A stretch of DNA of 64,000 bases. Source: Escherichia coli. Its GTDB lineage: Bacteria > Pseudomonadota > Gammaproteobacteria > Enterobacterales > Enterobacteriaceae. The DNA lies in NCBI RefSeq assembly GCF_045037415.1, contig NZ_CP173438.1. One strand, written 5' to 3'. The notes beneath the pieces are model-generated. The model did no database searches. It worked only from the letters and a program-made list of their open reading frames with translations, and was not told the DNA's origin. Below, one piece after another: positions 3,852 through 36,151 of the stretch. The position numbers were made by a program, and so were the translations under genes. Numbering within the stretch: the stretch's first letter is position 1; each line of letters starts with the position of its first letter.

Positions 3852-3867
3852 ATTGCACAGTTTGCTT

Positions 3868-5811: not shown

Positions 5812-5887
5812 TGGGTCAGGATGGCTCATTTGGGCAGGTGTTCACATCAGCATCAGACATGATTGTTCACCTGCCAGGTGACAGACG

Positions 5888-7090: not shown

Positions 7091-7601
7091 ACCTGACAGG
7101 CAATATATTGAGGTAAAGGATTTAACTCCCTCCAGCCGACAATTTTTTATGACCACAATACGACAGGTTGTGGTCATAAAATTATTTGGCGCTCGCGGTT
7201 CTATATACTCGCATTTTATCTTCCTCAAAGTAAACCGCAATAATCCCATATTATCACAAATCATTTATTATGTTATATTTTATGGTACGCTTTAAATAGT
7301 GTAATCATAACCTTACTTGTAAATCACTGACACTTCTTACAGTTGTAAGAATAACATCACAAATGTCGCGGCTCTCTCTGATTACCGCGAACCAATATTT
7401 ATTATATTCTTCTTTTCGTCCTCACTACTTACCATGCAGAAAGGAATTGGAAGTAGCGATGAAATGATTTTCAGCACTTGATACAGGAATTTAAAAATAT
7501 CGAGTGCAGCTACGACGATATTTTGCAGATTATTTATAGAGGCGTTATGCCTTAAATAAACGCTAAATTAACACATATTTAATTAACTAATAGGTATTGC
7601 T

Positions 7602-8852
7602 ATGTCAACTCCACTTCAAGGAATTAAAGTTCTCGATTTCACCGGTGTGCAATCTGGCCCATCTTGTACTCAAATGCTGGCCTGGTTTGGCGCTGACGTC
7701 ATTAAAATTGAACGTCCCGGCGTTGGTGACGTAACGCGCCACCAGCTGCGAGATATTCCTGATATCGATGCGCTTTACTTCACCATGCTTAACAGTAACA
7801 AACGTTCTATTGAATTAAATACCAAAACAGCGGAAGGCAAAGAGGTAATGGAAAAGCTGATCCGCGAAGCTGATATCTTAGTCGAGAACTTTCATCCAGG
7901 GGCCATTGATCATATGGGCTTCACCTGGGAGCATATTCAAGAAATCAATCCACGTCTGATTTTTGGTTCGATCAAAGGGTTTGATGAGTGTTCGCCTTAT
8001 GTGAATGTAAAAGCCTATGAAAACGTTGCTCAGGCAGCGGGTGGCGCGGCATCTACTACAGGTTTTTGGGACGGTCCGCCGCTGGTAAGCGCTGCAGCGT
8101 TGGGTGACAGCAACACCGGAATGCATTTGCTGATCGGTTTACTTGCTGCTTTGCTGCATCGCGAAAAAACGGGGCGTGGGCAACGAGTGACCATGTCAAT
8201 GCAGGATGCCGTGTTGAACCTTTGCCGCGTGAAATTACGCGACCAGCAGCGTCTCGATAAATTGGGTTATCTGGAAGAATACCCGCAGTATCCGAATGGC
8301 ACATTTGGTGATGCAGTTCCCCGCGGTGGTAATGCGGGTGGTGGTGGTCAGCCTGGCTGGATCCTGAAATGTAAAGGCTGGGAAACCGATCCTAACGCCT
8401 ATATTTATTTCACTATTCAGGAGCAAAACTGGGAAAACACCTGTAAAGCCATCGGCAAACCAGAATGGATTACCGATCCGGCATACAGTACAGCCCATGC
8501 CCGACAGCCACATATTTTCGATATTTTTGCTGAAATCGAAAAATACACTGTCACTATTGATAAACATGAAGCTGTGGCCTATTTGACTCAGTTTGATATT
8601 CCTTGCGCACCGGTTTTAAGTATGAAAGAAATTTCACTTGATCCCTCTTTGCGCCAAAGTGGCAGTGTTGTCGAAGTGGAACAACCGTTGCGTGGAAAAT
8701 ATCTGACAGTTGGTTGTCCAATGAAATTCTCTGCCTTTACGCCGGATATTAAAGCTGCGCCGCTATTAGGTGAACATACCGCTGCTGTATTGCAGGAGCT
8801 GGGTTATAGCGACGATGAAATTGCTGCAATGAAGCAAAACCACGCCATCTGA
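7602..8852 (+). CDS. frc: Formyl-CoA:oxalate CoA-transferase Frc (416 aa)
   Basis: ORF 416 aa [40 protein letters not shown]..., family III CoA-transferase signature. Confidence 0.9.
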
Positions 8853-8905
8853 TATTAACGGGGGCTTCTGGCTCCCAATTTATAAAAATTTCGAGGTTAT
8901 TAATC

Positions 8906-10600
8906 ATGTCAGATCAACTTCAAATGACAGATGGTATGCATATCATCGTTGAAGCATTAAAACAGAATAATATTGACACTATTTATGGTGTTGTAGGTAT
9001 TCCTGTGACGGATATGGCGCGCCATGCCCAGGCGGAAGGCATTCGTTATATTGGTTTTCGTCATGAGCAGTCGGCAGGTTATGCCGCTGCAGCAAGCGGT
9101 TTTCTTACCCAAAAACCAGGGATCTGCCTGACAGTGTCTGCGCCAGGATTCCTCAACGGTTTGACCGCATTGGCCAATGCAACGGTAAATGGTTTTCCGA
9201 TGATCATGATTAGCGGCTCCAGCGACCGCGCGATCGTCGATCTCCAGCAAGGTGATTATGAAGAGCTGGACCAAATGAATGCGGCAAAACCGTATGCCAA
9301 AGCAGCATTTCGCGTTAATCAGCCGCAGGATCTTGGCATTGCATTGGCACGCGCTATCCGGGTCTCAGTATCGGGTCGTCCTGGCGGTGTTTATCTTGAT
9401 TTGCCAGCAAATGTCCTGGCCGCGACGATGGAAAAAGACGAAGCGTTAACCACGATTGTTAAAGTTGAAAATCCGTCGCCAGCATTATTGCCATGCCCGA
9501 AGTCAGTCACTAGCGCAATTTCGCTTTTAGCAAAAGCTGAACGACCATTAATTATTCTTGGCAAAGGCGCGGCGTATTCACAATCTGATGAACAGCTTCG
9601 TGAATTTATTGAAAGTGCCCAGATTCCATTCCTGCCAATGTCTATGGCGAAAGGGATCCTCGAAGATACGCATCCACTCTCTGCGGCAGCTGCGCGTTCG
9701 TTTGCCCTGGCAAATGCTGACGTTGTCATGCTTGTTGGTGCACGACTGAATTGGTTACTGGCACACGGTAAAAAAGGATGGGCGGCAGATACACAGTTTA
9801 TTCAACTGGATATTGAACCGCAGGAAATTGACAGCAACCGCCCCATTGCTGTGCCAGTCGTTGGCGATATTGCATCCAGTATGCAAGGTATGCTGGCAGA
9901 ATTGAAACAAAACACATTTACGACTCCACTGGTGTGGCGTGATATTTTAAATATCCACAAGCAGCAAAATGCACAAAAAATGCATGAAAAGTTAAGTACA
10001 GATACCCAACCATTAAATTACTTTAATGCATTGAGTGCCGTGCGCGATGTTTTGCGCGAGAACCAGGATATTTATTTAGTTAATGAAGGGGCAAATACCC
10101 TGGATAATGCACGAAATATTATTGATATGTATAAACCACGTCGTCGTCTGGATTGTGGCACTTGGGGTGTCATGGGCATCGGTATGGGCTATGCCATCGG
10201 TGCTAGCGTGACCTCTGGTTCTCCGGTTGTCGCTATTGAAGGTGATAGTGCTTTTGGTTTCAGTGGGATGGAGATTGAAACGATTTGTCGATATAACCTG
10301 CCGGTGACGATCGTTATTTTTAATAATGGCGGCATCTACAGAGGAGACGGTGTTGACCTCAGCGGCGCTGGTGCACCATCGCCAACGGATCTGTTGCACC
10401 ATGCAAGGTATGACAAATTAATGGATGCGTTTCGTGGCGTTGGCTATAACGTCACCACGACAGATGAACTTCGTCATGCTTTAACCACCGGAATTCAGTC
10501 GCGCAAACCGACCATTATTAATGTGGTCATCGACCCAGCAGCAGGAACTGAAAGTGGCCATATTACCAAACTTAACCCAAAACAAGTCGCTGGTAATTAA
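8906..10600 (+). CDS. oxc: Oxalyl-CoA decarboxylase Oxc (564 aa), ThDP-dependent
   Basis: ORF 564 aa MSDQLQMTDGMHIIVEALKQNNIDTIYGVVGIPV...; ThDP-enzyme pattern. Confidence 0.9.
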   Translation: MSDQLQMTDGMHIIVEALKQNNIDTIYGVVGIPVTDMARHAQAEGIRYIGFRHEQSAGYAAAASGFLTQKPGICLTVSAPGFLNGLTALANATVNGFPMIMISGSSDRAIVDLQQGDYEELDQMNAAKPYAKAAFRVNQPQDLGIALARAIRVSVSGRPGGVYLDLPANVLAATMEKDEALTTIVKVENPSPALLPCPKSVTSAISLLAKAERPLIILGKGAAYSQSDEQLREFIESAQIPFLPMSMAKGILEDTHPLSAAAARSFALANADVVMLVGARLNWLLAHGKKGWAADTQFIQLDIEPQEIDSNRPIAVPVVGDIASSMQGMLAELKQNTFTTPLVWRDILNIHKQQNAQKMHEKLSTDTQPLNYFNALSAVRDVLRENQDIYLVNEGANTLDNARNIIDMYKPRRRLDCGTWGVMGIGMGYAIGASVTSGSPVVAIEGDSAFGFSGMEIETICRYNLPVTIVIFNNGGIYRGDGVDLSGAGAPSPTDLLHHARYDKLMDAFRGVGYNVTTTDELRHALTTGIQSRKPTIINVVIDPAAGTESGHITKLNPKQVAGN

Positions 10601-10669
10601 ATACTGACATCGTCTCCTCTTGCCAACTTATTATGCGATGGTGAGGGGACCCTTATCGGAAATACTATT

Positions 10670-11614
10670 ATGCTAACATTTTTTATTGGCGATTTATTGC
10701 CTATTATCGTAATCATGCTGTTGGGTTATTTTAGCGGCAGACGAGAAACTTTTTCAGAAGATCAAGCCCGGGCATTTAATAAACTGGTATTAAACTACGC
10801 TCTTCCTGCGGCTCTATTTGTTTCTATTACCAGGGCAAACAGGGAAATGATTTTTGCGGACACTCGCCTGACCCTTGTATCACTTGTGGTTATTGTCGGA
10901 TGTTTCTTTTTCTCCTGGTTCGGTTGCTACAAATTTTTTAAACGTACCCATGCAGAAGCAGCAGTATGTGCATTAATTGCAGGTTCACCTACCATTGGAT
11001 TCCTGGGGTTTGCAGTTCTCGATCCTATTTATGGTGATTCCGTATCAACAGGTTTAGTGGTAGCAATTATTTCTATTATTGTTAACGCAATTACTATTCC
11101 TATTGGTCTGTATTTGCTGAATCCTTCCTCAGGAGCGGATGGTAAGAAGAATAGTAATCTGAGCGCATTAATTTCTGCGGCAAAGGAGCCAGTAGTATGG
11201 GCACCTGTTCTGGCAACGATCCTGGTGCTGGTTGGGGTAAAAATTCCGGCAGCATGGGACCCAACCTTTAATCTGATTGCGAAGGCTAACTCAGGGGTAG
11301 CGGTATTCGCTGCGGGGTTGACTCTGGCTGCACATAAATTCGAGTTCAGTGCCGAAATTGCTTATAACACTTTCCTGAAGCTGATTCTGATGCCACTGGC
11401 GCTGCTTCTCGTCGGTATGGCATGTCATTTGAATAGCGAACATTTGCAGATGATGGTACTGGCAGGCGCATTACCGCCGGCATTCTCCGGAATCATTATT
11501 GCCAGCCGGTTTAATGTCTACACCCGTACTGGTACAGCGTCATTGGCTGTGAGCGTACTGGGTTTTGTCGTCACGGCTCCTTTGTGGATTTATGTCAGTC
11601 GACTGGTTTCATAA
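10670..11614 (+). CDS. yfdV: AEC-family transporter YfdV (314 aa)
   Basis: ORF 314 aa, polytopic membrane protein, follows oxc as in the K-12 operon. Confidence 0.85.
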
Positions 11615-24260: not shown

Positions 24261-24280
24261 ATGGTGTCCCCTGCAGGAAT
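24261..24280. repeat. Distal attachment-site repeat of the argW-integrated element
   Basis: ATGGTGTCCCCTGCAGGAAT is an exact 20-bp copy of the argW 3' end at 36076-36095. Confidence 0.8.
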
Positions 24281-24400
24281 GTGATTAATGAATTAAGAAA
24301 TTGATTTTTATGAATATAAAATTTTTATTGTCATAATTCTATACACTTAGTTATACACATAAGAAAAAATCAGTGATTTTTATGGACTGGGTGTATCTTC

Positions 24401-24490
24401 CCCAGCCCAGCCCAGCCCAGCCCAGCCCAGCCCAGCCCAGCCCAGCCCAGCCCAGCCCAGCCCAGCCCAGCCCAGCCCAGCCCAGCCCAG
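24401..24490. repeat. Pentanucleotide microsatellite (CCCAG)x18
   Basis: Read directly: 90 bp of perfect CCCAG units, then CCCCAACAAA. Confidence 0.95.
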
Positions 24491-24582
24491 CCCCAACAAA
24501 CCTAATGCAGTCTTTAGTTTACAAATTGTTACATATATTATTCGTCAAATTTCATTATTATCAGAGAGGTAATGACTCCAAC

Positions 24583-25086
24583 TTATTGATAGTGTTTTAT
24601 GTTCAGATAATGCCCGATGACTTTGTCATGCAGCTCCACCGATTTTGAGAACGACAGCGACTTCCGTCCCAGCCGTGCCAGGTGCTGCCTCAGATTCAGG
24701 TTATGCCGCTCAATTCGCTGCGTATATCGCTTGCTGATTACGTGCAGCTTTCCCTTCAGGCGGGATTCATACAGCGGCCAGCCATCCGTCATCCATATCA
24801 CCACGTCAAAGGGTGACAGCAGGCTCATAAGACGCCCCAGCGTCGCCATCGTGCGTTCACCGAATACGTGCGCAACAACCGTCTTCCGGAGCCTGTCATA
24901 CGCGTAAAACAGCCAGCGCTGGCGCGATTTAGCCCCGACATAGCCCCACTGTTCGTCCATTTCCGCGCAGACGATGACGTCACTGCCCGGCTGTATGCGC
25001 GAGGTTACCGACTGCGGCCTGAGTTTTTTAAGTGACGTAAAATCGTGTTGAGGCCAACGCCCATAATGCGGGCTGTTGCCCGGCAT
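24583..25086 (-). CDS. insB: IS1 transposase InsB (167 aa)
   Basis: [53 protein letters not shown]..., matches IS1 InsB. Confidence 0.95.
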
Positions 25087-25280
25087 CCAACGCCATTCAT
25101 GGCCATATCAATGATTTTCTGGTGCGTACCGGGTTGAGAAGCGGTGTAAGTGAACTGCAGTTGCCATGTTTTACGGCAGTGAGAGCAGAGATAGCGCTGA
25201 TGTCCGGCGGTGCTTTTGCCGTTACGCACCACCCCGTCAGTAGCTGAACAGGAGGGACAGCTGATAGAAACAGAAGCCAC
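25005..25280 (-). CDS. insA: IS1 InsA (91 aa)
   Basis: [43 protein letters not shown]..., matches IS1 InsA. Confidence 0.95.
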
Positions 25281-25528
25281 TGGAGCACCTCAAAAACACC
25301 ATCATACACTAAATCAGTAAGTTGGCAGCATCACCTATCAGAGATTAACAAGCATTGGCAAAGGTTGTCACTCAGTAATACTCACCATTATTAACTATTA
25401 TTCACCATTATTTAGTATTCAAATTCTTTGAATGAGTTTGAAAGTGCCAGTCTTTACGTATTAATTCTTCTGTGCAAGTATATATACACCCAATAGAGAC
25501 TAATTAAGTCTTAGTATAAATATCTAAT

Positions 25529-25771
25529 GTGAAGGACATAGCCATGAGCTTATTGCCTCGGGAAAACGCACCCCAAAAAAGATATAGACTTCTGAGAATA
25601 TCAGAAGTGATTAATTTGACTGGCTTACCCAAGTCAACAATTTATCTAAAGATAAAGAATGATGAATTTCCGAACCAAGTTTCTATCGGTTCTCGTTCTG
25701 TTGCATGGGTGGAGCATGAAGTTAATGAATGGATAGAGAAGAATATTCTCAATAGAAAATTAAACTCCTAA
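25529..25771 (+). CDS. AlpA-family phage transcriptional regulator (HTH); true start may be the internal Met at 25544
   Basis: ORF 80 aa with YRLLRISEVINLTGLPKSTIYLKIKNDEFPNQVSIGSRSVAWVEHEVNEWI, the AlpA/MerR-like HTH pattern. Confidence 0.75.
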   Translation: MKDIAMSLLPRENAPQKRYRLLRISEVINLTGLPKSTIYLKIKNDEFPNQVSIGSRSVAWVEHEVNEWIEKNILNRKLNS

Positions 25772-25788
25772 ATTGAGGTGGCAAATAT

Positions 25789-26649
25789 ATGGTTGACAAT
25801 GTTTTTAAGAAGAAATTGGCATCAATTAAGAACGAACATGTGTCGGTGTTAGATAGTTACAAAGTAAGATCATTTAAAGAGACTCATAGCGACACGGCCT
25901 GTATTGTGCGTATTATTGAAATATATTCACTGAATAAGCTGCGAGCTAAAGGTGAAAAGCTGTATTCACTTACGGGGTTAACAGTACCTGATACGGAAAC
26001 TGTGGCGAATGAGATCAACCTGCTCCTGAGCCGTTATGCCCAGTTGTGTCGTCAGGAAGAGGAAGAGTTATCTTTCCGGCAGCGTGAAGTGACAAATGCG
26101 GAAGTTGCATGGAAAAGCACATTCTCAAAAAACGGCGTCAGTAGCATTGCTGAAGCCAAAACGAATAAAATGGGGCATGCTGAACGAGCGGATGCTGAAC
26201 GGTATTACCATCTGGCTGTTTCCCGGTTGAATGAACAACATAGTCGATTGAGCACGATCAAGCTTTTGCCGGGAGTACTGGCCGATGAAGGAAACTACAT
26301 TGGGAAGGGAATCGATAAGCGTTTACTGAATATATTTCCTCAATCCGGCCAGATCCCTGCTGATTTTATTTCTGTATTTAATGACAGTGACGTTGTCCGT
26401 GATATTAAATTTATTACTGATGCACTCAAGTCTTTATCTGATTCCGTGAGTGAAATTATTAGTCGTTGTAGCGTTCCAACTGATCGTTATGTATTAAATA
26501 ACGGTGGAATGGCAAGAGCTATGGCTTACAGGGAGTACTATCGAGCAGATAATTATGTATTACGTTCAGTCGTAAGTGACCGGGATTATGTTGAGCATGT
26601 AATGAAATACAATCTGGTTACTGAGTACAAAAATAAAATCTTTTCTTAA
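25789..26649 (+). CDS. Hypothetical protein (286 aa) directly upstream of capsid-like gene; possible scaffold or capsid-remodelling protein
   Basis: ORF track only; consistent coding frame; function assigned by position, not by motif. Confidence 0.5.
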   Translation: MVDNVFKKKLASIKNEHVSVLDSYKVRSFKETHSDTACIVRIIEIYSLNKLRAKGEKLYSLTGLTVPDTETVANEINLLLSRYAQLCRQEEEELSFRQREVTNAEVAWKSTFSKNGVSSIAEAKTNKMGHAERADAERYYHLAVSRLNEQHSRLSTIKLLPGVLADEGNYIGKGIDKRLLNIFPQSGQIPADFISVFNDSDVVRDIKFITDALKSLSDSVSEIISRCSVPTDRYVLNNGGMARAMAYREYYRADNYVLRSVVSDRDYVEHVMKYNLVTEYKNKIFS

Positions 26650-26671
26650 ATACTTAAAAAGGTGAAAAACT

Positions 26672-27676
26672 ATGTATGCCTTCAAAACTGAAAGGCCGGA
26701 CGCAGCACGTCGTTATCATAATAAATTCGTCACTGGCACTAACTATCAGGAAGAATCAAACAGACGCTTTGCATTAAGCGAACCTACTGAAAATATACTG
26801 CGTACCTCAATTCTGGAATCCGGGTGGCTTATTAAAAATATTACCCTACGTGATGTTAACGCCGTGTCAGGTAATGCCGTCAATATTGGTGCCAGTGAAC
26901 TGTATACCGGACGTGTGGATGGTGGCCGTTTCCACAAAAAAATGGCAATCAATGGTACGGAGTTCTTTCTGACAGAGACGGATACCTGCGCCCGGATCAG
27001 CTATTCCGATATGTCTCATATTTACCATACCGGCGTGCCGGATGAGTTTGAGAAAACGGTTGAGAGCTTTTTTGCCCAGGCATATGCGCTGGACATGCTG
27101 CGGGTCGGTTTCAACGGTGTGTCGATTGCAAATACTACAAACCCGGAAATCAATAAAAAAGGCGAGGATGTCAATATTGGCTGGCATGCACTGGCGAAAG
27201 CCTACGGGAACGGAAAGCAAATCATCTCTGAGCCTGTCACTCTGGGAGAGACTGGCACCTGGAAAAATATTGATGCTCTGGCCAACCATCTGATTACAGA
27301 GCTTATTGCTGAGCAGTTTCGTGAAGATCCTCGTCTGGTTGTACTGGTTGGGGCAGAGCTGGCAGCACATCAACGCCTGAAGTTATTTAATGCCGCAGAC
27401 CGCCCGTCTGATGTGAATGCGGCACAGATGGCTACAAGTTCTGTTGCTGGCCGCTTTGCGTTTATTCCCCCGTTTATGCCGGGTAAGCGTCTGGCAGTAA
27501 CGACGCTGGATAATCTGCATATTTACACTCAGGCGATAACACGCTGGTTTCGTGCTGAGTTTGATGATGAAAGCAGTGAATACGTGCATTCCTACCTGCG
27601 CAATGAAGGTTATGCACTCGGTGAACCTGAACTGTACGCGGCTGTTGATGAGTGCACCCTGACGTTTGCGGATTGA
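26672..27676 (+). CDS. P2-GpN-like major capsid protein homolog (334 aa)
   Basis: Blocks FALSEPTENILRTSILES..., MLRVGFNGV...NIGW..., DALANHLITELIAEQFREDPRLVVLVGAEL and TLDNLHIYT align by eye with my recollection of P2 GpN; needs profile confirmation. Confidence 0.45.
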   Translation: MYAFKTERPDAARRYHNKFVTGTNYQEESNRRFALSEPTENILRTSILESGWLIKNITLRDVNAVSGNAVNIGASELYTGRVDGGRFHKKMAINGTEFFLTETDTCARISYSDMSHIYHTGVPDEFEKTVESFFAQAYALDMLRVGFNGVSIANTTNPEINKKGEDVNIGWHALAKAYGNGKQIISEPVTLGETGTWKNIDALANHLITELIAEQFREDPRLVVLVGAELAAHQRLKLFNAADRPSDVNAAQMATSSVAGRFAFIPPFMPGKRLAVTTLDNLHIYTQAITRWFRAEFDDESSEYVHSYLRNEGYALGEPELYAAVDECTLTFAD

Positions 27677-27905
27677 CTTAGCGACAGAAAGACCCGCTCA
27701 GAGGCGGGTTCGTTTACAGCATCAGGAAAAATGAAGAACTATTTTTAAGCAGAGGCTTAAGCATGCCAGCGTTAATTAATCCAGGCAATGATCAGTTTTC
27801 GGTTATAAATTTCTTGCCTCACCAGGAATGCGCGGGATATAGTTTAAAGGTTGCCGCAAAATCGGCAGCCGGGCGTAGGAACCCGTGTTATCTGAAGGCG
27901 ATACT

Positions 27906-27929
27906 ACACGCGCTAGGCGTGTTTTTTTG
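27906..27929 (+). terminator. Rho-independent terminator inside the apparent non-coding leader upstream of the primase operon
   Basis: ACACGC-GCTAG-GCGTGT hairpin followed by TTTTTTT. Confidence 0.55.
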
Positions 27930-28149
27930 TGTCGCAGCTTTGACTCACCTAAAATTTATGGTGTGGTGGCTGATTGTATTTTTTTATTTTTTACGCCACA
28001 TCATCAGAATTATGGTAGTCCAGGCGGGGCAGCTTTCGGGCTGGCCGGTATCCTTCAGAGCCGGTATTCCTACCCCCGTCTGGGCTACCACCCATGAGCG
28101 TAGGAACTCCGGTGGTAGCGTTACCCGCTATCTGAAGGAGGTTGCCATT

Positions 28150-28353
28150 ATGGCTACAGTCCCTGCTTTATCTCACCCTGAATTTACCTTTGTCTTTCTG
28201 GCTGTCCGCCGTACAGACCGTGATGCCCGTCCACGCCCTGTGCGTGTAATCGCAGAATGCGAGCATGCTGCACGCCTTAAACTTGCCACTGAATTTATCC
28301 TGAGCTTTGCTGCCCGTATCCCTGTGAAAAGAGCCGGGGAGGTGGTTGCATGA
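28150..28353 (+). CDS. Small hypothetical protein (67 aa), first gene of a translationally coupled operon
   Basis: ATG at 28150 preceded by GAAGGAGG; stop overlaps next start (ATGA); the 196-aa ORF-track call 27763-28353 is treated as spurious upstream of this Met. Confidence 0.4.
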   Translation: MATVPALSHPEFTFVFLAVRRTDRDARPRPVRVIAECEHAARLKLATEFILSFAARIPVKRAGEVVA

Positions 28354-28586
28354 AATCCATGAATTTTAAGCAAGGCTGCATATTGAGTGAACAGGGGGAG
28401 AGTCGTCTGTTACGGGCGGCACTGGCCAGTGAGTTTCTTGCAGAGGTCTTGTCCGTGCCCACAGTGAATGGAGCGAGAACTGTTTCAGCGGAAGGCGCTG
28501 CGGCTTTAGTGGCCTGTATTGCCGAACAACTGGATGGCGTTGTTAAGGAAACCAGCACAATTAAGGGAGTGATGCGCGATGAATAA
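28350..28586 (+). CDS. Small hypothetical protein (78 aa)
   Basis: ORF track; start overlaps upstream stop and end overlaps next ORF. Confidence 0.45.
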   Translation: MKSMNFKQGCILSEQGESRLLRAALASEFLAEVLSVPTVNGARTVSAEGAAALVACIAEQLDGVVKETSTIKGVMRDE

Positions 28587-28989
28587 TAATCAAAATTTAA
28601 AGGCGCATGCTTTACGAACAGCAGTCTTACGCTACTACATTGCTGATGCATTCATTTCCTTAATGGTGCGTGTTCATAATGAACCTGTTTATATTGAAGA
28701 TGGCGAACGAATAGAACTCTCCCACGAAAAAGTGGTGAGTAATATTATTTACCATATTGAAATGCCGTGGGTGAATGAGTTTGGGGCTGATGCTGGTTGC
28801 ATACTGGCCGCAGAGAAACTGGAAAAAATGCTTAAACCAGGCTTTATGTCAGAAAATATTCGCCTGTCAGTTTTTGGTGTCACAGAGATGCGTGAGGTTT
28901 ACCGGGATATTATTTTCGGAGCACCTGATGGCGAACTACCCGAAGGTTTTGAATTTGTGAAGCCGGAAGGTCAGGAGGTGCTGCTGTGA
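28579..28989 (+). CDS. Hypothetical protein (136 aa) immediately upstream of primase
   Basis: ORF track; 4-nt overlap with primase start suggests coupling. Confidence 0.5.
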   Translation: MNNNQNLKAHALRTAVLRYYIADAFISLMVRVHNEPVYIEDGERIELSHEKVVSNIIYHIEMPWVNEFGADAGCILAAEKLEKMLKPGFMSENIRLSVFGVTEMREVYRDIIFGAPDGELPEGFEFVKPEGQEVLL

Positions 28990-31673
28990 AAACACCGTCT
29001 GTATCCACGATTTCCGGAGCTGCAATTGGGCGCTGGCCTTATATCCTGTCAGCATTAGGTATTAAAGTACCGTCCGCAGGACATCATGGGGCTTGCCCTG
29101 CCTGTGGTGGAAAAGATCGTTTTCGACTGGACGATAAAGCGGGGCGAGGGACGTGGTTTTGTAATCAGTGCGGTCATGGCGATGGTCTTGATCTGGTTCG
29201 TCTGGTGACAGGAAGAAAGATAAAAGAAGTCGCCGGGATGGTATCTGAGGCGCTTGCATTACCAGAAATACAGGAGAAGCCCGCATTGCCAGCCAGGAAA
29301 AAGGCCGCAGGAAAAGAAGCGGGCGCGGAGCGATATACCAGACTCAGACAGCAGTCCTGCAATGGTGAGCCGGTCTATCTGACAAATAAGAGCTTACACG
29401 GGTATTCACTTCCCTTGCTGTCACAGCCTTTGAATCTGGCCGGAATAACATTTTCCACCGGTTCATTACTGCTGCCTTTGACGGATATTTCCGGGAATAT
29501 TACTGGTGGCCAGCTTATCAATCCTGACGGGGATAAAAGTCTGCTGCCCGGTAGCCAGCTGTCTGGCGCATTCATTGCCCTGACCGATATACCCGCTGAA
29601 ACACCTGAACAGGTGATTATCACTGAGGGTTTTGCCACGGCGCTTACCGTCAGTCTGCTGACTGAAGGATGGATCGTGGCGGCTGTCGCTGCCACCAATT
29701 TACTGAAGGTGACGGAGCAGATCCGAAAACGCTGGCCGGAAACCCGGATCATTCTGGCCGGAGATAATGATCTGGCTGACGGCAAAGAAAACACCGGGCG
29801 TATTCAGGCAGAGAAAGCCGCCAAAGCGGTGGATGGCTGGGTAACGCTCCCTCCGGTACGCCATAAGGCTGACTGGGATGATTATCGGCAGGAAGTGGGG
29901 AAAGAACGGGCGAGAGATGCCTTTCGTGAAGAAATGACGCTGCATGGCAAAGGGCAGACCCGTTTACCAGAAGGGTTCCGGCTGACAAAAGAATATTTGT
30001 GGTACGACAAGCTGGTTAATAAGTCTGATGGTGATACAGAGATACGTAATATCAAAATTTGCAGTCCGTTGCGGGTGACGGCAATCACCAGTGATGCTGA
30101 TGGAAGTAATTACGGGCGTTTGCTGGAATGGGAAGATACCAACGGAAACAGCCGTAAATGGGCAATGCCGATGGAGATGCTGGGCGGTAGCGGGGAAGAA
30201 CTGCGCCGCGTTCTGCTGGTTAACGGGCTTTCTTACATCAACATTAACGGCATGGCCAGAGCATTCCTGATGGAATATATCTCGCTGTGTAAACCGGACA
30301 GAAAAGTAACCTGTGTGAATAAAACTGGCTGGCACGGCGGGGTTTACGTTCTCCAGGATGAAGTGATAGGGCGCGAAGCCCAGTCAGTCATCTTACAAAC
30401 ATCGAGTGTGCAGGGGCGTGATTTTCGTGTCAGCGGCACATCAGAGGGCTGGCGTGAAAATATAGGCCGTTATTGCATAAAGAATGCCCGTCTTGCCTTT
30501 GCGGTGAGTCTGGCATTTGCTGCCCCCCTTCTGAAACTGGTTGGTATCGGCGGTGGAGGTTATCACCTCAAAGGGGAATCCACAGACGGTAAAACCACGA
30601 CGATGAAAGTGGCTGCATCAGTATGTGGTGGAACAGATTTCTGGCATACGTGGCGGGCGACGGGGAATGCCTTAGAAGGAACGGCGAGCCGCCGCAATGA
30701 TGCCACGCTGATGCTGGATGAAATCCGGGAGGTTGACGGCAGGGAGGCGGGAAATATCGCTTATATGCTGGCTAACGGGCAGGGCAAAGCCAGAGCCAGA
30801 ACAGATGGTTCGGTAAGGGAAACCAACCGCTGGAATCTGTTGTTTCTGTCTACCGGGGAACTGTCACTGGTAGAGCATGCGGCAAGCGCCGGGGAACGTA
30901 CGTATGCCGGGGTTGAGGTCAGAATGATCCAGATCCCAAGCGATTCGGGCAAGTATGGCGTGTTTGAAGAACTTCATGGCTTCAGTAGCGGGAAAACCCT
31001 GGCTGAGCATCTTGAGCAGCACGTAGCGCATTATCATGGTGCACCATTCCGCGACTGGCTGTATTGCCTGACCGCTGATCTGCCGGAACTGACCAGTCAG
31101 GCGAAAGCCTTATTGAAAGAGTATACCCGAAGGCTGACGCCGGAAAATGCCGGGAATCAGGTTGGCCGGGCTGTTACCCGTTTTGCTCTGGTTGCGATGG
31201 CCGGGGAGCTGGCCACAAAAGCGGGCATCACAGGATGGCCGGAGGGAGAGGCCTTTCGTGCCGCTCAAAGCTGTCTGGCTGCATGGATGGCTGACCGGGG
31301 CCATACAGCTAATCAGGAAGATAAAGCGGCACTTGAACAGGTTCGGGACTTCATGACGCGTAATCAGTTCAGTCGGTTTGCTGACTGGAATGACGACAGG
31401 AACCGGCCTGTTTCAATGATGGGATTCAGAAAAGTCGATAAAGGAGACAACGTGACAGAGCCGGTTGTGACGTTCTACGTTCTCCCGTCAGGCTGGAAGG
31501 AGATCTGTAAGGGATTTGACTCGCGTAAGGTGGCCAGGTTGTGTGTGGACGCGGGCTGGCTGAAACCCGGTGAAGATGGCCGGACGCAAAACAGCATTCG
31601 CCTGCCAGAAATAGGGCTTAAACGTGTGTACCAGTTCAATACACAGGTACTGGGAAGCGCTGAACCTGAGTGA
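28986..31673 (+). CDS. P4-alpha-like zinc-binding primase-helicase (895 aa)
   Basis: N-terminal CPACGG...FCNQCGHGDG zinc-finger pair; Walker A GESTDGKTT; overall satellite replication-protein architecture. Confidence 0.8.
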   Translation: MKTPSVSTISGAAIGRWPYILSALGIKVPSAGHHGACPACGGKDRFRLDDKAGRGTWFCNQCGHGDGLDLVRLVTGRKIKEVAGMVSEALALPEIQEKPALPARKKAAGKEAGAERYTRLRQQSCNGEPVYLTNKSLHGYSLPLLSQPLNLAGITFSTGSLLLPLTDISGNITGGQLINPDGDKSLLPGSQLSGAFIALTDIPAETPEQVIITEGFATALTVSLLTEGWIVAAVAATNLLKVTEQIRKRWPETRIILAGDNDLADGKENTGRIQAEKAAKAVDGWVTLPPVRHKADWDDYRQEVGKERARDAFREEMTLHGKGQTRLPEGFRLTKEYLWYDKLVNKSDGDTEIRNIKICSPLRVTAITSDADGSNYGRLLEWEDTNGNSRKWAMPMEMLGGSGEELRRVLLVNGLSYININGMARAFLMEYISLCKPDRKVTCVNKTGWHGGVYVLQDEVIGREAQSVILQTSSVQGRDFRVSGTSEGWRENIGRYCIKNARLAFAVSLAFAAPLLKLVGIGGGGYHLKGESTDGKTTTMKVAASVCGGTDFWHTWRATGNALEGTASRRNDATLMLDEIREVDGREAGNIAYMLANGQGKARARTDGSVRETNRWNLLFLSTGELSLVEHAASAGERTYAGVEVRMIQIPSDSGKYGVFEELHGFSSGKTLAEHLEQHVAHYHGAPFRDWLYCLTADLPELTSQAKALLKEYTRRLTPENAGNQVGRAVTRFALVAMAGELATKAGITGWPEGEAFRAAQSCLAAWMADRGHTANQEDKAALEQVRDFMTRNQFSRFADWNDDRNRPVSMMGFRKVDKGDNVTEPVVTFYVLPSGWKEICKGFDSRKVARLCVDAGWLKPGEDGRTQNSIRLPEIGLKRVYQFNTQVLGSAEPE

Positions 31674-31699
31674 TTATCGCGTGAGTCTTATTTTTATGA

Positions 31700-31888
31700 G
31701 GTAACACTGGTAACAGAGGTAACACCCGTTACTGATGCGGTTCTTCAGTGTTACCAGTCAAAAATACTGACTGGTAACAGAGGTAACAAAAAATGGTGTG
31801 TTACCACGCGTTACCTCTTGATTTTGCTAACTGGTAACAGATTAAATCCTTTTAAATCAATAGCGTTACACGTGTTACCAGTGTTACA
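31700..31888. promoter_or_regulatory. Iteron cluster, candidate origin of replication of the element
   Basis: At least 12 copies of GGTAACA / TGTTAC(C/A) in both orientations within ~190 bp just 3' of the primase gene. Confidence 0.55.
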
Positions 31889-31955
31889 CGTTCAGAACAA
31901 GAGGTAGGGATCCAAATCCCTTCTTCTGGCGGGCAACAGTATAGGGCACAGAACG

Positions 31956-32228
31956 ATGAAGATGATGAGAATGTACTGCCCCACATGTCAGGCAGTAGCA
32001 CGGATAGGTAAAACAAACAGGAAACACCCACAACTGTACGATGTGTACTGCTATTGCTCTAATGTGGAGTGCGGTCACTCGTTTGTGATGAATGTTGCTT
32101 TCTCCCATTCCGTTAGTCCAAGCGCGCTGAACGGGCAGGGAAGGGTTAAAGAGCTGATTGATGCAATTCCACCCGAGGAACGGGAAAAGGCTTTAAAGTT
32201 GCTGCTGGCTGCGCAAAAGAATGGGTAA
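31956..32228 (+). CDS. Ogr/Delta-family zinc-finger late-gene activator-like protein (about 87-90 aa)
   Basis: ORF MKMMRMYCPTCQAVARIGKTNRKHPQLYDVYCYCSNVECGHSF...; C-x2-C ... C-x4-C spacing typical of Ogr/Delta. Confidence 0.65.
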   Translation: MKMMRMYCPTCQAVARIGKTNRKHPQLYDVYCYCSNVECGHSFVMNVAFSHSVSPSALNGQGRVKELIDAIPPEEREKALKLLLAAQKNG

Positions 32229-32907
32229 AGTATGCGTCGGGAATGGCCGATCTGTTCCCGGAACCTGAACACAGGATTTCAGTTTATACGGTCATAAAAT
32301 TATTATTTTTCAACTGGTTATCTTCTTCATGTTTCACAAACCTTCATAAAATCACACACCTAAAATTAATTATCCATTTAATATCATAGAGTTGCGTATT
32401 CAGGCCATAGATTCGACGGACAGTAAAACTGAAAAAAAATGAATTTCTTTTCATTCTTTTCAGTTCCTGTATCGCAGTACATCTCGAGGACTGGCACGGA
32501 CTGGCGGTATCGTTTGTAAAAAATCCAGGCTGAAAATTTTTAGTGATATGAAAACCGCAGGCGGGTGCGGTGTAGTGCCGTTTTGGTCTGTCGAGCGTAT
32601 ATTTTCCTTTTTCACGATTGCTGCATATCAAAACGAATGTGCAGATATCAGGCCGTGTCAAACCGTGAATCGTGGAGCCTAAATGCCCAAACTACGTTTG
32701 TAGACCTAGCTAGGGGAAGGTTTCCACATATACTGCTACCTATCTTCCAGTCGCTGGTGAGGATCAAGGTAAGCTAACTGGTGAACAAGAAAAGTACTTT
32801 CGTATCTTGCGTACTCGTTTTTTTTGATTAGTATGTACAGGTAGTAACTGGATGGTGAGAATTCGTCATAACTTATCAAATTGCATGATGTTTATAGAGT
32901 ATGAGTA

Positions 32908-33789
32908 ATGAGTCATAATAAAAAGGAATATGCTAAATTTTTCCGTCGCCCCATTTTTTCATCCTTAGCAAAAGGTAAGGATATTTCGGATTTATTTGGG
33001 AGTTTTGATTCTTACTGCTATGAAACACTGTTTTCAAACAATGATAATAATGAACATGAGATTTCACTAAGGGATTTATTTACATCATTATATGATTTTT
33101 TGCGTCTGAATTATAGAAATGAATATGTTTATAAGACAGCACTTGTCAATAAAATAATATTCGGTAAGCACAGCCCAAAAACAAGTTCGTCGTCCATAGA
33201 GTTACCAATTAAAAACTCTATAGTGGATGTTGCGGTGTTTAATGGTACGTCTACAGCTTACGAGATTAAGACAGAGTATGATTCACCAAAAAGGTTGATT
33301 ACTCAAGCCCCTGATTATTTGGATGTTTTTGATAAAGTGTATATAGTTACACATCCAGAGTATGCAAGTAAATATTGTGCTTTAAATCTCCCCAGAGTGG
33401 GAGTTATGGTTTTGAATAAAAAAGATCAATTGAGTGTCATTAAGGAGGCAGATTCAAATATTGATTATATTAAAAGTGACAGCTTGTTTTCAGTTCTTAG
33501 AAAGGAAGAGTTCTTAGCTATAATAGAAGATTACACTTCAACTAAAATAAATATGCCTAACGGATTGGTTTATGAATATTGTAAAGAGATATTCATGCAG
33601 ATGCCATTAAACATAGCAAATAAATACTTTATCTCTGCTATGAAAAAAAGATGTAACGATAAAGTTTTTTTGGATTATATTTATTCTCTTCCAGCATGTT
33701 TACGTGTTTTAGGTTATGCAACACCATTATCAAGAAAGCAAAAAGAATTCATCATGAATTTGATGGATGTAAAAATTAAAATTTGTTGA
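32908..33789 (+). CDS. Hypothetical protein A (293 aa), AT-rich cargo gene with PD-(D/E)xK-like motif
   Basis: ORF track; IVDVAVFNGTSTAYEIKTE (D107 ... E119-x-K121) resembles a restriction-endonuclease-fold catalytic core; strong AT bias unlike flanking DNA. Confidence 0.6.
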   Translation: MSHNKKEYAKFFRRPIFSSLAKGKDISDLFGSFDSYCYETLFSNNDNNEHEISLRDLFTSLYDFLRLNYRNEYVYKTALVNKIIFGKHSPKTSSSSIELPIKNSIVDVAVFNGTSTAYEIKTEYDSPKRLITQAPDYLDVFDKVYIVTHPEYASKYCALNLPRVGVMVLNKKDQLSVIKEADSNIDYIKSDSLFSVLRKEEFLAIIEDYTSTKINMPNGLVYEYCKEIFMQMPLNIANKYFISAMKKRCNDKVFLDYIYSLPACLRVLGYATPLSRKQKEFIMNLMDVKIKIC

Positions 33790-33810
33790 TATCCTCAGGA
33801 GTTGTAAGTT

Positions 33811-34761
33811 ATGTATAGCCCATATTTGTATGCGAGAAGTACAGAGTTATTATGCCTTAGGGACCTCGTTGCGAAGGGAGTTAGCCTAAATGGTCTGCTA
33901 CCAATTTTAGAACCAATTAACGTCAATACGAGAAATTTATTAACATGTTTAAATGTTTGGAATTCTGACATAATTGTTATCCTTAATCCTTATCAGGAAG
34001 ATTTTTCTTCACACAATAACGTCTTAACTTTAAATCAAAATTTATCAAGTGTATTAACAAATAAAAATAATATCATCTCTGGATATCTTATTCAGCCCAA
34101 TACAACGATTAATGATATTAATAATTGGTTGAATGCTAACTTAAATAGACGAGTTGCACTTCTATATGATAATCCATCATTATCCAACTCTGATATTCAG
34201 TTGTTGGCGACAAATCAATTGATTAGTTATCATGTTGTTTTAAATAATAAAATGCTTCCTAATCAGTGCGCTCTTCTTCCTTTGTCGAAGTTAATTATTA
34301 TTAGCGATAACTTTAGAAAGTTAGCAAAAAATGCTGATTATAATGGGCCGGAACTTTTCACGCACGCACATCAATTCGTGGGACAAAATTACTTAGGATT
34401 TGGCGATTATACAATTACTGGCCAGGTACTAGATCTTGGAGGTGGTCAACCTTCTGCTGTTGCCGCACATTTGGTGTTCAAGAATTTACAAGCGAATACA
34501 GTTTGGATTCGTCATTTTGTATCAAGCAACACGCAACGAGGAAGTTCAAATGTTACTGCAAAATTTTTAGATGTTTCAGATCAAATTACAAATCTTGTTC
34601 CCCAACATCCAACCCAGTTTGGCAGCAACATTGGTCTTAACTATTATTATTACAATAGTCAACCAACTGTAAGGCATTTCCCTGGGTTGCCAAAAAACAA
34701 ACAGTATCAAATTACTCACCATATTTGTTTCATGCTGGATTTAATAGCAGGTCGTATTTAA
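33811..34761 (+). CDS. Hypothetical protein B (316 aa), AT-rich cargo gene, Asn/Ser/Leu-rich, no motif I can assign
   Basis: ORF track; AGGAG Shine-Dalgarno 8 nt upstream; 21-bp gap from gene A; 3' end overlaps integrase 3' end convergently. Confidence 0.6.
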   Translation: MYSPYLYARSTELLCLRDLVAKGVSLNGLLPILEPINVNTRNLLTCLNVWNSDIIVILNPYQEDFSSHNNVLTLNQNLSSVLTNKNNIISGYLIQPNTTINDINNWLNANLNRRVALLYDNPSLSNSDIQLLATNQLISYHVVLNNKMLPNQCALLPLSKLIIISDNFRKLAKNADYNGPELFTHAHQFVGQNYLGFGDYTITGQVLDLGGGQPSAVAAHLVFKNLQANTVWIRHFVSSNTQRGSSNVTAKFLDVSDQITNLVPQHPTQFGSNIGLNYYYYNSQPTVRHFPGLPKNKQYQITHHICFMLDLIAGRI

Positions 34762-35916
34762 TAAGCTAGCGTACCATTCCATCATTACTTGTCGATCTTT
34801 AATATATTGCGCATGATTGTAAGTACCTCGAATAGAGTTCTTATCAACATGCGCAAGCTGCATTTCAATCCAGGCACTTTCAAACCCATGCTCATGCAAG
34901 ATGGTGCTCATGGTATGCCTGAAACCGTGACCCGTTAACCGACCGTGATAACCCAGTAGTTTTATCACTTTGTTGATGCTGGCTTCGCTCATTGGTTTAC
35001 TGACGTCATTCCGGCCAGGGAAAACGAGGCTGTAATTCCCTGTTATTTCTTGCAGCTTTTTCAGGATATTGATCGCCTGAGTTGATAACGGAACCAGATG
35101 GGGGCGGCGTTTCTTCATCCGTTCTTTGGGGATCTCCCATAAGGCATTATCTAAATCAAACTCAGCCCATTCCGCTGCACGTAGTTCAATTGTTCGCACG
35201 CCTGTTAGCATCAACAGCTGCGTGGCGTATTTGGTAACTAAACTGCCCTGATAGTTATCCAGAGCATTAACGAACTCGGGCAACTCGCTTTCAGTCAGGA
35301 ACGGGAAGTGTTGGGTTTTAGGTTTGTTGAGTGCGATAGCTAAATCGGGTGCAAAATTATACTTTGCTCTACCAGTGGCAACAGCATAACGAAGCACTTC
35401 ACCACAGCGGCGGCGGATCTTACTGGTTTGCTCTAGCGCACCTCTTTTCTCTATTTTTTGCAGGACGGTTAGCAGTTCTAATGGTTCAATCTGCTCAATT
35501 GGGCGCTGGCCGATAAAAGGAAAAATATCCTTTTCCATACAATTGAGAACCTCTTTTGCATAACCCTCTGACCAGGTGGCTTTTTTCGATGAGTGCCATT
35601 CTCTGGCCACAGACTCAAAGCTGTTCTCATGCGCGAACTGCAAAGCAATCTTATCTGCTTTTCTGGCTTCACTTGGGTTTATCCCGTTGGCTAACATCGA
35701 ACGCGCTTCATCACGTTTGGTACGTGCCTGTGCCAACGACACATCGCCATATACGCCAAAGGAAATCATCTTAGGCTTACCTGCAAAGCGATAGCGAAAA
35801 CGCCAGCCTTTACTGCCCGCTGTGTCGATCAGGAGTGATAGCCCCATACCATCGTTAAGCGTATAGGGTTTGTCCTTCGGTTTTGCTCTTTTTATTTGGA
35901 TGTCAGATAGCAGCAT
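34741..35916 (-). CDS. P4-family tyrosine integrase (391 aa)
   Basis: ORF 407 aa trimmed to MLLSDIQIKRAKPKDKPYTLNDGMGLSLL...; C-terminal HxxR ... Y catalytic pattern; adjacent to tRNA. Confidence 0.85.
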   Translation of the reverse strand: MLLSDIQIKRAKPKDKPYTLNDGMGLSLLIDTAGSKGWRFRYRFAGKPKMISFGVYGDVSLAQARTKRDEARSMLANGINPSEARKADKIALQFAHENSFESVAREWHSSKKATWSEGYAKEVLNCMEKDIFPFIGQRPIEQIEPLELLTVLQKIEKRGALEQTSKIRRRCGEVLRYAVATGRAKYNFAPDLAIALNKPKTQHFPFLTESELPEFVNALDNYQGSLVTKYATQLLMLTGVRTIELRAAEWAEFDLDNALWEIPKERMKKRRPHLVPLSTQAINILKKLQEITGNYSLVFPGRNDVSKPMSEASINKVIKLLGYHGRLTGHGFRHTMSTILHEHGFESAWIEMQLAHVDKNSIRGTYNHAQYIKDRQVMMEWYASLLNTTCY

Positions 35917-36075
35917 GTGTATAGAAAAAAGATCGAACTCAGTTATACACAATGTTATACGCAAAGATGTATAGATTCCATTAGAAATAATGGTACTTTG
36001 CTGGACGAGTATAAGGAGATGATATCAGTTAAAACAGTGAGTTATGGAATTAATTGAACTTAGTGAGAAGTGTTC

Positions 36076-36095
36076 ATGGTGTCCCCTGCAGGAAT
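36076..36095. repeat. tRNA-proximal attachment-site repeat (overlaps argW 3' end)
   Basis: ATGGTGTCCCCTGCAGGAAT, identical to 24261-24280. Confidence 0.8.
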
Positions 36096-36151
36096 CGAAC
36101 CTGCAATTAGCCCTTAGGAGGGGCTCGTTATATCCATTTAACTAAGAGGAC
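36077..36151 (-). tRNA. argW: tRNA-Arg (anticodon CCU)
   Basis: Reverse complement reads GTCCTCTTAGTTAAATGGATATAACGAGCCCCTCCTAAGGGCTAATTGCAGGTTCGATTCCTGCAGGGGACACCA; cloverleaf with CCU anticodon and T-arm GGTTCGATTCC. Confidence 0.9.

Follow-up and report, generated by a model that had tools for sequence, protein, structure and literature searches.

A probable helper-dependent satellite at argW of Escherichia coli with a P4-like backbone, a capsid paralog and an ESSI-2-type cos site

Introduction

Phage satellites, the P4-like chassis, the mimicry of helper cos sites and satellite-encoded homologs of capsid proteins are all known already. The P4-like core recognized by SatelliteFinder consists of Int, Psu, Delta, Sid, AlpA, Epsilon/Ash and Alpha, while phage-inducible chromosomal islands of the capsid-forming kind (cfPICIs) encode portal, protease, head-tail connectors, TerS, TerL and HNH and steal only tails from their helpers (PMC10085698). 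Among other phage-inducible chromosomal islands (PICIs), PmCI172 makes small heads on contractile-tailed particles (PMC6092414) and has a helper described as Mu-like (PMC6893505); both PmCI172 and EcCICFT073 are Gram-negative PICIs that carry capsid homologs (PMC6893505; PMC6092414). The present analysis concerns an element integrated at the tRNA gene argW in a 64-kb stretch of E. coli DNA (contig NZ_CP173438.1 of assembly GCF_045037415.1), here called the window. The element is numbered in window positions, and its occurrence in E. coli was surveyed in 5,426 complete genomes.

The element is read here, with a probability of about 0.7, as an integrated, helper-dependent satellite that has a P4-like backbone and a helper-exploitation module fitting the ESSI-2-type P2-like myophages (Seongnamvirus/Quadragintavirus) rather than P2 or 186. 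Its chassis is P4-like and its helper-exploitation module is not, because P4 queries for Sid, Psu, epsilon, gop and beta match nothing, the C-terminal two thirds of the primase have no alpha match and the gene order differs from that of P4. No paper was found in the literature that describes this architecture or that links ESSI-2-type phages to a satellite, although such an absence is not thereby proven. In particular, a P4-type chassis in which a capsid paralog and a helical protein (with a gpO-domain homolog in sister lineages) replace Sid and Psu was not found described, nor was its combination with an identical cos core that matches it to ESSI-2-type helpers and with a spread across the Enterobacterales.

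A P4-Type Backbone

The genes of the element run in the order alpA-orf286-capsid-C4/icd-orf78-cnr-alpha-ogr-cos-cargo-int (Table 1), and all of its open reading frames (ORFs) are intact, as are the att sites, cos and the iterons. Homologs of the AlpA/Vis-like regulator carry the Pfam domain PF05930. The immunity region that follows the capsid gene is 71% identical in nucleotide sequence to the cI region of P4, the translation of which matches at 58% identity. Its isrK-like leader ends in a terminator and scores 69 bits with the Rfam model RF01394 and 44 bits with RF03163; P4 itself gives the same pair of isrK and C4 Rfam matches, and the P4 CI RNA matches RF01695.

The Icd-like ORF forms the C-terminal third of an annotated 196-aa ORF (27763-28353), the upstream two-thirds of which overlie the RNA genes. 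Most probably only the last ~68 codons, from 28147 onward, constitute a real Icd-like ORF, and the long frame looks like an annotation artefact common to the P4 'cI protein'. PGAP calls the whole of 27763-28353 a 196-aa 'Icd-like' protein, the homologs of which carry the Pfam domain Phage_ASH; this match falls on the ORF overlying the CI RNA region.

Downstream, the small early-operon gene orf78 is kept in all family members. The next protein belongs to the same Pfam family, DUF5375, as that to which P4 ORF106, which we take to be Cnr, is annotated. The N-terminal ~317 aa of the primase-helicase are 38% identical to P4 alpha, and the remaining C-terminal two thirds, which hold the DUF927 part, have no alpha match, so that the helicase/origin-binding part of alpha has no counterpart there. 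Between this gene and ogr lies a 282-bp gap (31674-31955) that contains nine of the 18 copies of GGTAACA/TGTTACC present in the whole window. These iterons resemble the P4 type-1 repeats TGTTCACC, and they occur in equal number and similar layout in the Cronobacter, Klebsiella and Atlantibacter members of the family. The Ogr protein is 52% identical to the Ogr homolog of ESSI2_ev015, and its match to P4 delta is weak (E = 0.006). At the end of the element next to the tRNA, the integrase is of a type whose homologs carry Pfam arm-binding and catalytic domains.

Other P4 functions were sought in the element and not found. P4 Sid gave no tblastn or blastp match and no PHROG match among the ORFs, P4 Psu gave no match, and P4 protein queries for gop and beta likewise gave none. 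A sequence-only reading of the window had listed an AlpA-like regulator, a zinc-finger primase-helicase, an Ogr/Delta-like zinc finger and a P4-family tyrosine integrase beside the tRNA, had seen a capsid-like gene and recognized neither sid nor psu, and had called the block close to P4 in size and non-canonical in order and content. All of the named genes proved to be present, the primase-helicase with zinc-ribbon, Toprim and DUF927 domains; the capsid gene is of the P2 family; and the description as a P4-like but non-canonical satellite agrees with the backbone homology, the capsid gene and the failure to find Sid or Psu. That reading had missed the IS1 copy, the immunity RNA of the C4/CI type, the iterons of the candidate origin, the cos that indicates helpers of the ESSI-2 type and not of the P2/186 type, and the defence-type pair of cargo genes.

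A cos Site Matching ESSI-2-Type Phages

The noncoding region that follows ogr (32229-32907) holds the sequence that associates the element with a particular group of helpers. A 15-nt core, GCGGGTGCGGTGTAG, lies at 32561-32575, and the record of Cronobacter phage ESSI-2 (NC_047854) both starts and finishes with this same GCGGGTGCGGTGTAG. This terminal redundancy can be read as the cohesive end of the phage, and the alignment of the element continues straight into the first real bases of the ESSI-2-type records. The core is exact in the Cronobacter, Klebsiella, Atlantibacter, Yersinia, Providencia and Pectobacterium members of the family and in a metagenomic contig, and in every member checked it lies in the gap between ogr and the cargo. 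The element is concluded to carry a functional-looking cos of the ESSI-2-type Peduoviridae, at which the terminase of such a phage would package it. A cos of the P2/P4 type was considered and rejected, in that blastn with the P4 end-junction and with the whole P4 genome matched only the cI region.

The sizes of the two partners are also in keeping with the small heads proposed below. The three measured copies free of the insertion sequence IS1, at 11.0-11.5 kb, amount to 0.36-0.38 of the 28.8-30.9-kb genomes of the candidate helpers, and the corresponding ratio of P4 to P2 is 0.35.

A side observation concerns the phage records themselves. Those of ESSI2_ev015 (NC_049395.1, 1-48) and ESSI2_ev040 (NC_049393.1, internal) contain remnants of the Nextera transposase adapter (…TCGTCGGCAGCGTCAGATGTGTATAAGAGACAG) at the genome termini. 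These remnants are database contamination, and they coincide with the point of the cos core, marking physical DNA ends.

The Capsid Paralog and orf286

The capsid paralog is colinear with phage capsid proteins and scores 204.6 bits with TIGR01551, just below the cut-off of 219.65. With the capsids of Cronobacter ESSI-2 and of the Escherichia ESSI2_ev phages it shares 47-48% identity, and with P2 gpN 23%. Between four genera its identity is 71-80%, and the ratio of nonsynonymous to synonymous substitution rates (dN/dS) is 0.06-0.15, with dS saturated, values that indicate strong purifying selection on the protein. Divergence of the primase, the Ogr protein and the DUF5375 protein between genera is similar.

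Directly before the capsid gene stands orf286, which evolves faster, with 45-53% identity between the four genera, and has kept its length. Its family comprises 105 protein clusters, all labelled 'hypothetical' and without a Pfam match, and all from Enterobacteriaceae except one record labelled Vagococcus. The orf286 protein is a candidate scaffold-like or size-determining partner of the capsid protein. Three grounds suggest such a role, namely a fixed place by the capsid gene, a helical make-up and the gpO-domain gene that the sister modules contain.

The last of these refers to a ~170-aa homolog of the gpO N-terminal domain, encoded right after the capsid gene in sister lineages and lacking from the sublineage found in the window. 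It is 54% identical to the ESSI2 scaffold and 39% identical to P2 gpO (loci L090, which is 1-10950 of IMGVR_UViG_3300031087_000529, L144, L145 and L146). The N-terminal domain of P2-type gpO is presumably a protease. The position of this homolog beside the capsid gene in sister lineages indicates a role in head assembly for the module.

The Family Across the Enterobacterales

Relatives of the element occur in Salmonella, Klebsiella, Enterobacter, Cronobacter, Yersinia, Providencia and Pectobacterium. A single order, alpA-orf286-capsid-Ash/C4-small ORF-DUF5375-primase-Ogr-[variable genes]-int, is found in the Cronobacter, Klebsiella and Atlantibacter members. The same architecture is present in Yersinia ruckeri, Providencia rettgeri and Pectobacterium carotovorum, with capsid homologs at 53-58% identity, full-length orf286 homologs at 22-27% identity and the extra gpO-domain gene. 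Two integration modules are in use across the family; one inserts at argW with int at the far end, and the other at tRNA-Thr(CGT) with int adjoining alpA. In the loci with the tRNA-Thr(CGT) module (L012 7399-8829; L016 1-1403), the rest of the element is colinear.

Insertion Site, Boundaries and Prevalence in E. coli

The 20-mer ATGGTGTCCCCTGCAGGAAT is present in exactly two copies in the window, one at either end of the element, and no chance copy appeared in 100 shuffles in which two mismatches were permitted. The right copy is the 3' end of a tRNA gene, because the sole tRNA of the window, tRNA-Arg(CCT) of argW, maps to 36077-36151 on the minus strand (ARAGORN and Rfam). The inserted unit measures 11,815 bp; dsdX and dsdC are its neighbours on the left, and yfdC, mlaA and fadL those on the right. 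A synthetic empty site, composed of the left flank, one repeat and argW/yfdC, was matched over at least 80% of its length by 912 of the 5,426 genomes, and the 25 best matches listed, which include LF82 and an O25:H4 strain, were all in one piece and 100% identical. Because this in silico empty site matches other genomes contiguously, the boundaries are exact to the base. The sequence-only reading had placed exact direct repeats around the block, the right one at the 3' end of argW, and had looked to E. coli genomes with an empty argW for its boundaries; both points held. Other integrated copies carry the repeats as well, and the block is not co-linear with a full-length prophage.

The same reading had the element replacing the K-12 prophage CPS-53, and here only part of the claim stands. 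In K-12 the 10,215-bp CPS-53 does sit between argW and dsdC, but the element is really another occupant of the same attachment site. The two have a 16-nt part of the att core in common, and in strain GZ2408C a CPS-53 remnant and the satellite lie in tandem at argW (L014 7471-29702). That remnant is decayed and CPS-53-like, running from torI to intS with copies of IS4 and IS1 and unrelated metabolic pseudogenes. In several E. coli contigs of IMG/VR, the junction on the int side of the satellite is ATGGTGTCCCCTGCAGACAT. Of the repeat, no more than the first 16 nt are present at this junction, which implies that another element lies between the satellite and argW.

The element was found in 419 of the 5,426 genomes, including strains labelled O25b:H4-ST131.

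Cargo Genes

Between cos and int lies a slot of variable content. In the window, it holds the genes of a sce7726-family and a sce7725-family protein (32908-34761), which have a G+C content of ~32% and form a gene pair that is recognized in NCBIfam and uncharacterised. The sce7726 protein is 39% identical to P4 cII over 61 aa, and P4 cII is itself annotated as a member of the sce7726 family. The candidacy of sce7725 as a homolog of P4 beta was dropped for want of support from BLAST, Pfam or PADLOC. Compared with the gop-beta-cII locus of P4, then, the slot has the cII-like component and neither beta nor gop, and PADLOC gave no match for sce7725.

The gop-beta-cII locus behaves in a manner resembling abortive infection or a toxin-antitoxin system (bioRxiv 10.1101/2023.04.06.535777; PMC9122126). 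By analogy a defence role for the sce7726/sce7725 pair may be called plausible, and is put no higher because no gop or beta homolog was detected. In other members the slot is occupied by KwaA/KwaB of the Kiwa system (Providencia), RVT_1 with a Retron_Ec48 effector (Pectobacterium), a HATPase_c_3 pair (Yersinia) or a DprA-like protein with a HAD hydrolase (Klebsiella). The last of these, a DNA_processg_A and HAD-hydrolase pair of Klebsiella pneumoniae (L010/L011 17226-19446), may be a defence pair as well. Variable cargo of this kind matches the behaviour of the cos-adjacent hotspot in P4-like satellites (PMC9122126). The presence of Kiwa, retron Ec48 and sce7725/sce7726 in different members suggests that the family moves defence genes between genera.

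Secondary Insertions, Microsatellite and Other Repeats

The left end of the element carries several features outside the backbone. The IS1 copy between attL and alpA is 768 bp long and is flanked by a 9-bp target duplication, TATCAGAGA, at 24559-24567 and 25336-25344. It is missing from most other copies of the element; one other strain has IS1 elsewhere in the element, and other copies also bear IS1 or ISEc52 at other places within it. Without its IS1 the element measures 11,038 bp, an ancestral length of ~11.04 kb, and three IS1-free copies measured from repeat to repeat span 11,015-11,468 bp.

A perfect microsatellite also lies between attL and alpA. Its copy number is 18.6 in the window and 32.6 in strain 4/4 (NZ_CP023826), both by Tandem Repeats Finder (TRF), and ~23 in FXCREC145 as counted from the alignment. 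At this place stand (GCCTCCA)8 in a Klebsiella relative and (CAGCCTC)n in contig L018, a conserved position with differing units and a hypervariable length (window 24401-24493; L001 3203-3365; L010 ~9457-9512; L018 1-30). The microsatellite could tune the geometry of the att arm or the expression of alpA.

Closer to alpA, the direct repeats at 25374-25419 have counterparts of period 10 and different sequence at the same position in other family members, and they are candidate binding sites for AlpA or Int. The TGTGCAAGTATATATACA block is intact in the Cronobacter member and almost intact in the Klebsiella member, two of three relatives conserving a copy. It is a candidate promoter or Ogr-responsive site and could equally belong to a sigma-70 promoter.

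Table 1. Positions of the features of the element in the window and the evidence by which each was assigned.
Feature	Position	Strand	Evidence or description
attL	24261-24280	+	left 20-bp direct repeat, duplicate of argW 3' end
(CCCAG)n microsatellite, 18.6 copies	24401-24493	+	TRF
IS1 (insA/insB), secondary insertion	24568-25335	-	alignment with IS1-free copies; InsA and InsB ORFs
10/20-bp direct repeats upstream of alpA	25374-25419	+	TRF; candidate AlpA or Int binding sites
TGTGCAAGTATATATACA block	25471-25488	+	TGT-N12-ACA dyad, ~56 bp upstream of alpA
alpA/vis-like regulator-excisionase	25544-25771	+	46% identical to P4 ORF88 (Vis); phrog_2790 excisionase/regulator
orf286 ('X'), all-helical conserved 286-aa protein	25789-26649	+	directly before capsid gene
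P2-family major capsid paralog, 334 aa, full length	26672-27676	+	phrog_70, 1.8e-86
Immunity leader	27814-27927	+	promoter/terminator scan; Rfam RF03163 and RF01394
Leader, promoter-like site	27814-27843
Leader, a1/b1-type targets	27837-27889
Leader, terminator	27906-27922		followed by T-run
C4/CI-type antisense immunity RNA	28008-28095	+	RF01695, 81.1 bits (gathering score 45)
Icd-like small ORF	28147-28353	+	NF033153 over residues 141-188 and phrog_1743 over residues 129-194
orf78, small conserved protein, early operon	28350-28586	+	phrog_38507
DUF5375 protein	28579-28989	+	phrog_5991; homologs PF17345
Alpha-like primase-helicase, 895 aa	28986-31673	+	Zn-ribbon, Toprim, DUF927; phrog_1139, 4.5e-185
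Candidate replication origin, nine GGTAACA/TGTTACC iterons	31700-31880		in 282-bp gap 31674-31955
Ogr/Delta-type zinc-finger late-gene activator	31956-32228	+	phrog_603; homologs PF04606
cos site	32426-32600	+	~72-77% identical to terminal ~145 nt of ESSI-2-type records
sce7726-family protein, cargo gene 1	32908-33789	+	NF033832, 9.6e-52; PADLOC 'cll', 1.2e-18
sce7725-family protein, cargo gene 2	33811-34761	+	NF033831, 1.1e-71; no Pfam match
Tyrosine integrase, P4/IntS family	34741-35916	-	40% identical to P4 Int over 406 aa; 45% to CPS-53 IntS
attR	36076-36095	+	right repeat copy, within argW

Proposed Life Cycle and Alternative Readings

If the element is a satellite of ESSI-2-type phages, its life cycle can be sketched from the features described above. 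Its tyrosine integrase inserts it at the 3' end of argW, giving rise to the 20-bp duplication observed in the window. In quiescence, as judged from homology with P4, the C4/CI antisense RNA would act on its own leader and hold off the operon of icd, orf78, the cnr-like gene and the primase gene. Upon infection by a helper or its induction, AlpA/Vis and Int would excise the element, and the primase-helicase would replicate it from the nine-iteron origin. The Ogr homolog would then switch on the late genes of the helper and probably also the alpA-orf286-capsid operon of the satellite itself. Satellite concatemers would be cut and packaged by the helper terminase at the satellite cos, a site identified from its sequence. 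In what is the least certain step, the capsid paralog and orf286 may co-assemble with the helper capsid protein or substitute for it, and in this way replace Sid and Psu in the manner of Ccm; the outcome would be small T=4-like heads with room for ~11 kb and not for the ~30-kb genome of the helper. Finally, the cos-adjacent sce7726/sce7725 pair, related to gop-beta-cII, would probably provide the host with a defence of the abortive-infection type.

A narrower version of this proposal states that the element represents a distinct satellite family that builds or co-builds its own small shell from the capsid paralog and orf286 (with the gpO-domain homolog in sister lineages) and takes portal, terminase and tail from the helper through the shared cos. 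This is a tentative proposal, to which somewhat less than an even chance is given. If it were true, the family would be 'semi-capsid-forming' and intermediate between P4, without head genes, and the cfPICIs, with their complete head module, and it would offer P2-like phages' satellites a second and independent way of redirecting capsid size.

A number of observations weigh against the satellite reading. P4 epsilon gave no match in the element (best E = 0.02, off-frame), and an epsilon-like derepressor was not found. The orf286 family has no detectable kinship to any scaffold, to Sid or to Psu, with hhalign probabilities of 0.2 for both Sid and Psu. The IS1 copy adds 7% to the element and brings it to 11.8 kb, by which the capacity of a small head may be exceeded. 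The TGT-N12-ACA dyad occurs 19 times in the window, which is no enrichment over the 15.8 copies expected, and one of its half-sites is degenerate in the Klebsiella member. Head modules of the ESSI-2 type were found in 48 of the 5,426 E. coli genomes, whereas 419 carry the element. Forms that are excised, circular or cos-ended were not seen; three ~10-11-kb metagenome and Logan contigs that were checked and contain the whole element are integrated forms, breaking at the tRNA or the microsatellite without terminal overlap. The IMG/VR loci with the cos pattern comprise 12 satellite-like, 77 phage-like and 31 other loci, and no cos-ended satellite genome is shown among them.

The scarcity of helpers also bears on an alternative, that the element is in this strain an immobile, domesticated island, a once-working satellite that persists mostly in one E. 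coli lineage as a clonal carrier of sce7726/sce7725. Clonal inheritance would fit the best-matching copies listed, 26 of 30 of which are 100% identical over the shared sequence, with one labelled O25b:H4-ST131; the IS1 between attL and alpA, and IS1 or ISEc52 elsewhere in other copies, fit an island that no longer moves. Mathieu et al. likewise found ESSI-2-type prophages to be scarce in E. coli, although infant gut viromes have yielded ESSI2 phages able to infect the species (PMC6969025). Against domestication, moreover, stand the intactness of every ORF, of att, cos and the iterons, and the occurrence of the element both in tandem with other argW occupants and independently of them. On balance this alternative is considered unlikely, with a part of it retained in the satellite reading: because ESSI-2-type prophages are scarce, the element in E. 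coli would mostly await an incoming helper or be clonally inherited.

According to another alternative, the capsid paralog and orf286 serve mainly for interference, as dominant-negative poisons of the helper head, and the element, should it be packaged, enters helper heads of full size as multimers, in the way that lambda packages EcCICFT073. EcCICFT073 offers a precedent in that it has a capsid homolog and yet full-size capsids, and deletion of the gene did not relieve interference (PMC6092414; PMC6893505). Head size, furthermore, is not readable from sequence, and helpers that are rarely co-resident fit a mainly defensive role for the host. The lengths of the three IS1-free copies measured, however, fall within the tight range of 11.0-11.5 kb, roughly a third of a helper genome, as would be expected if a small head sets the limit, and the gpO protease-domain homolog of the sister lineages looks like assembly machinery and not like a poison. 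Interference as the main function is considered unlikely.

That the element is what remains of an ordinary ESSI-2-type or P2-like prophage after decay and the loss of most genes, as the relation of its capsid gene, Ogr gene and cos to ESSI-2-type phages might suggest, is very hard to credit, since the same ~11-kb gene set and order recur under purifying selection in seven genera or more, its genes for replication and immunity are of P4 type and not of P2 type, no other structural, lysis or gpA-type replication gene was found in the element with NCBIfam and PHROGs, and the capsids of family members with checked loci are closer to one another (56-100% identity) than to any phage capsid found (at most 50%).

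Comparison With Known Satellites

The satellite reading places the element among several described systems, of which P4 is the nearest in its backbone. Both integrate at the 3' end of a tRNA gene, have a size of ~11 kb and possess Vis/AlpA, isrK/C4 immunity, a DUF5375/Cnr-type protein, the N-terminus of alpha and Ogr/Delta. Within the P4-like core outlined above, the element has the tyrosine integrase, AlpA, the alpha primase in its N-terminal part and the Ogr/Delta zinc finger, and lacks Sid, Psu, the P4 gene order and a P2-type cos. It does have immunity of the P4 RNA type, in which a C4/CI RNA lies in the early operon with a leader upstream of it that bears the targets. A variable cargo slot next to cos with a cII-like gene is a further likeness (PMC9122126). 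The P4 order is int-psu-delta-sid-alpA-eps-alpha (PMC8628076), from which that of the element differs. P4 lacks the capsid paralog and orf286, which the element has; the element lacks Sid, Psu, gop and beta and gave no match to P4 epsilon; and the cos of P4 is of the P2 type, that of the element of the ESSI-2 type.

The best functional precedent for what the capsid gene may do is Ccm of SaPIbov5. As in the element, the paralog of the helper capsid is encoded by the satellite, which is cos-packaged and has no terminase gene (PMC6893505; PMC8569155). SaPIbov5 belongs to a different host phylum and Ccm to an unrelated capsid lineage, with 23% identity to the helper capsid compared with 48% in the element. 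Ccm turns prolate heads isometric.

The PICIs PmCI172 and EcCICFT073 resemble the element in having Int, AlpA, a primase-replicase, a capsid homolog and a helper cos. SatelliteFinder's PICI core comprises int, alpA, pri-rep, capsid morphogenesis and terS (PMC10085698); of these the element has an integrase, AlpA, a primase-replicase and a capsid-related gene. Unlike the element, the PICIs have a layout and regulation not built on C4/CI RNA with Cnr and Ogr. Those with capsid homologs usually have terS or rpp-type packaging genes, which the element lacks; none of its ten ORFs matches a terminase family, as a terminase or packaging-redirection gene might, in NCBIfam or PHROGs. The cos of EcCICFT073 is of the lambda/phi80 type and not of the ESSI-2 type. 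With the cfPICIs the element has in common that the satellite encodes its own capsid protein; portal, connectors, TerL, TerS and protease were not found in it with NCBIfam and PHROGs, and only the sister lineages have a gpO-domain gene. CPS-53/KplE1 of K-12 uses the same attachment site through an integrase that is 45% identical, and its gene content is otherwise unrelated.

These comparisons expose a gap in classification, in that current rules, which demand Sid and Psu of a P4-like element and terS of a PICI, will probably overlook or misfile the family. The match of cos, Ogr and capsid also names a candidate helper-satellite pair for which isolates exist, as the ESSI2_ev phages, such as ESSI2_ev015, ev040, ev129 and ev239, infect E. 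coli. Such a pair would allow two solutions to size control to be compared on related HK97-fold capsids, that of P2 and P4, the textbook case, with Sid and Psu, and that of a capsid paralog with a helical protein.

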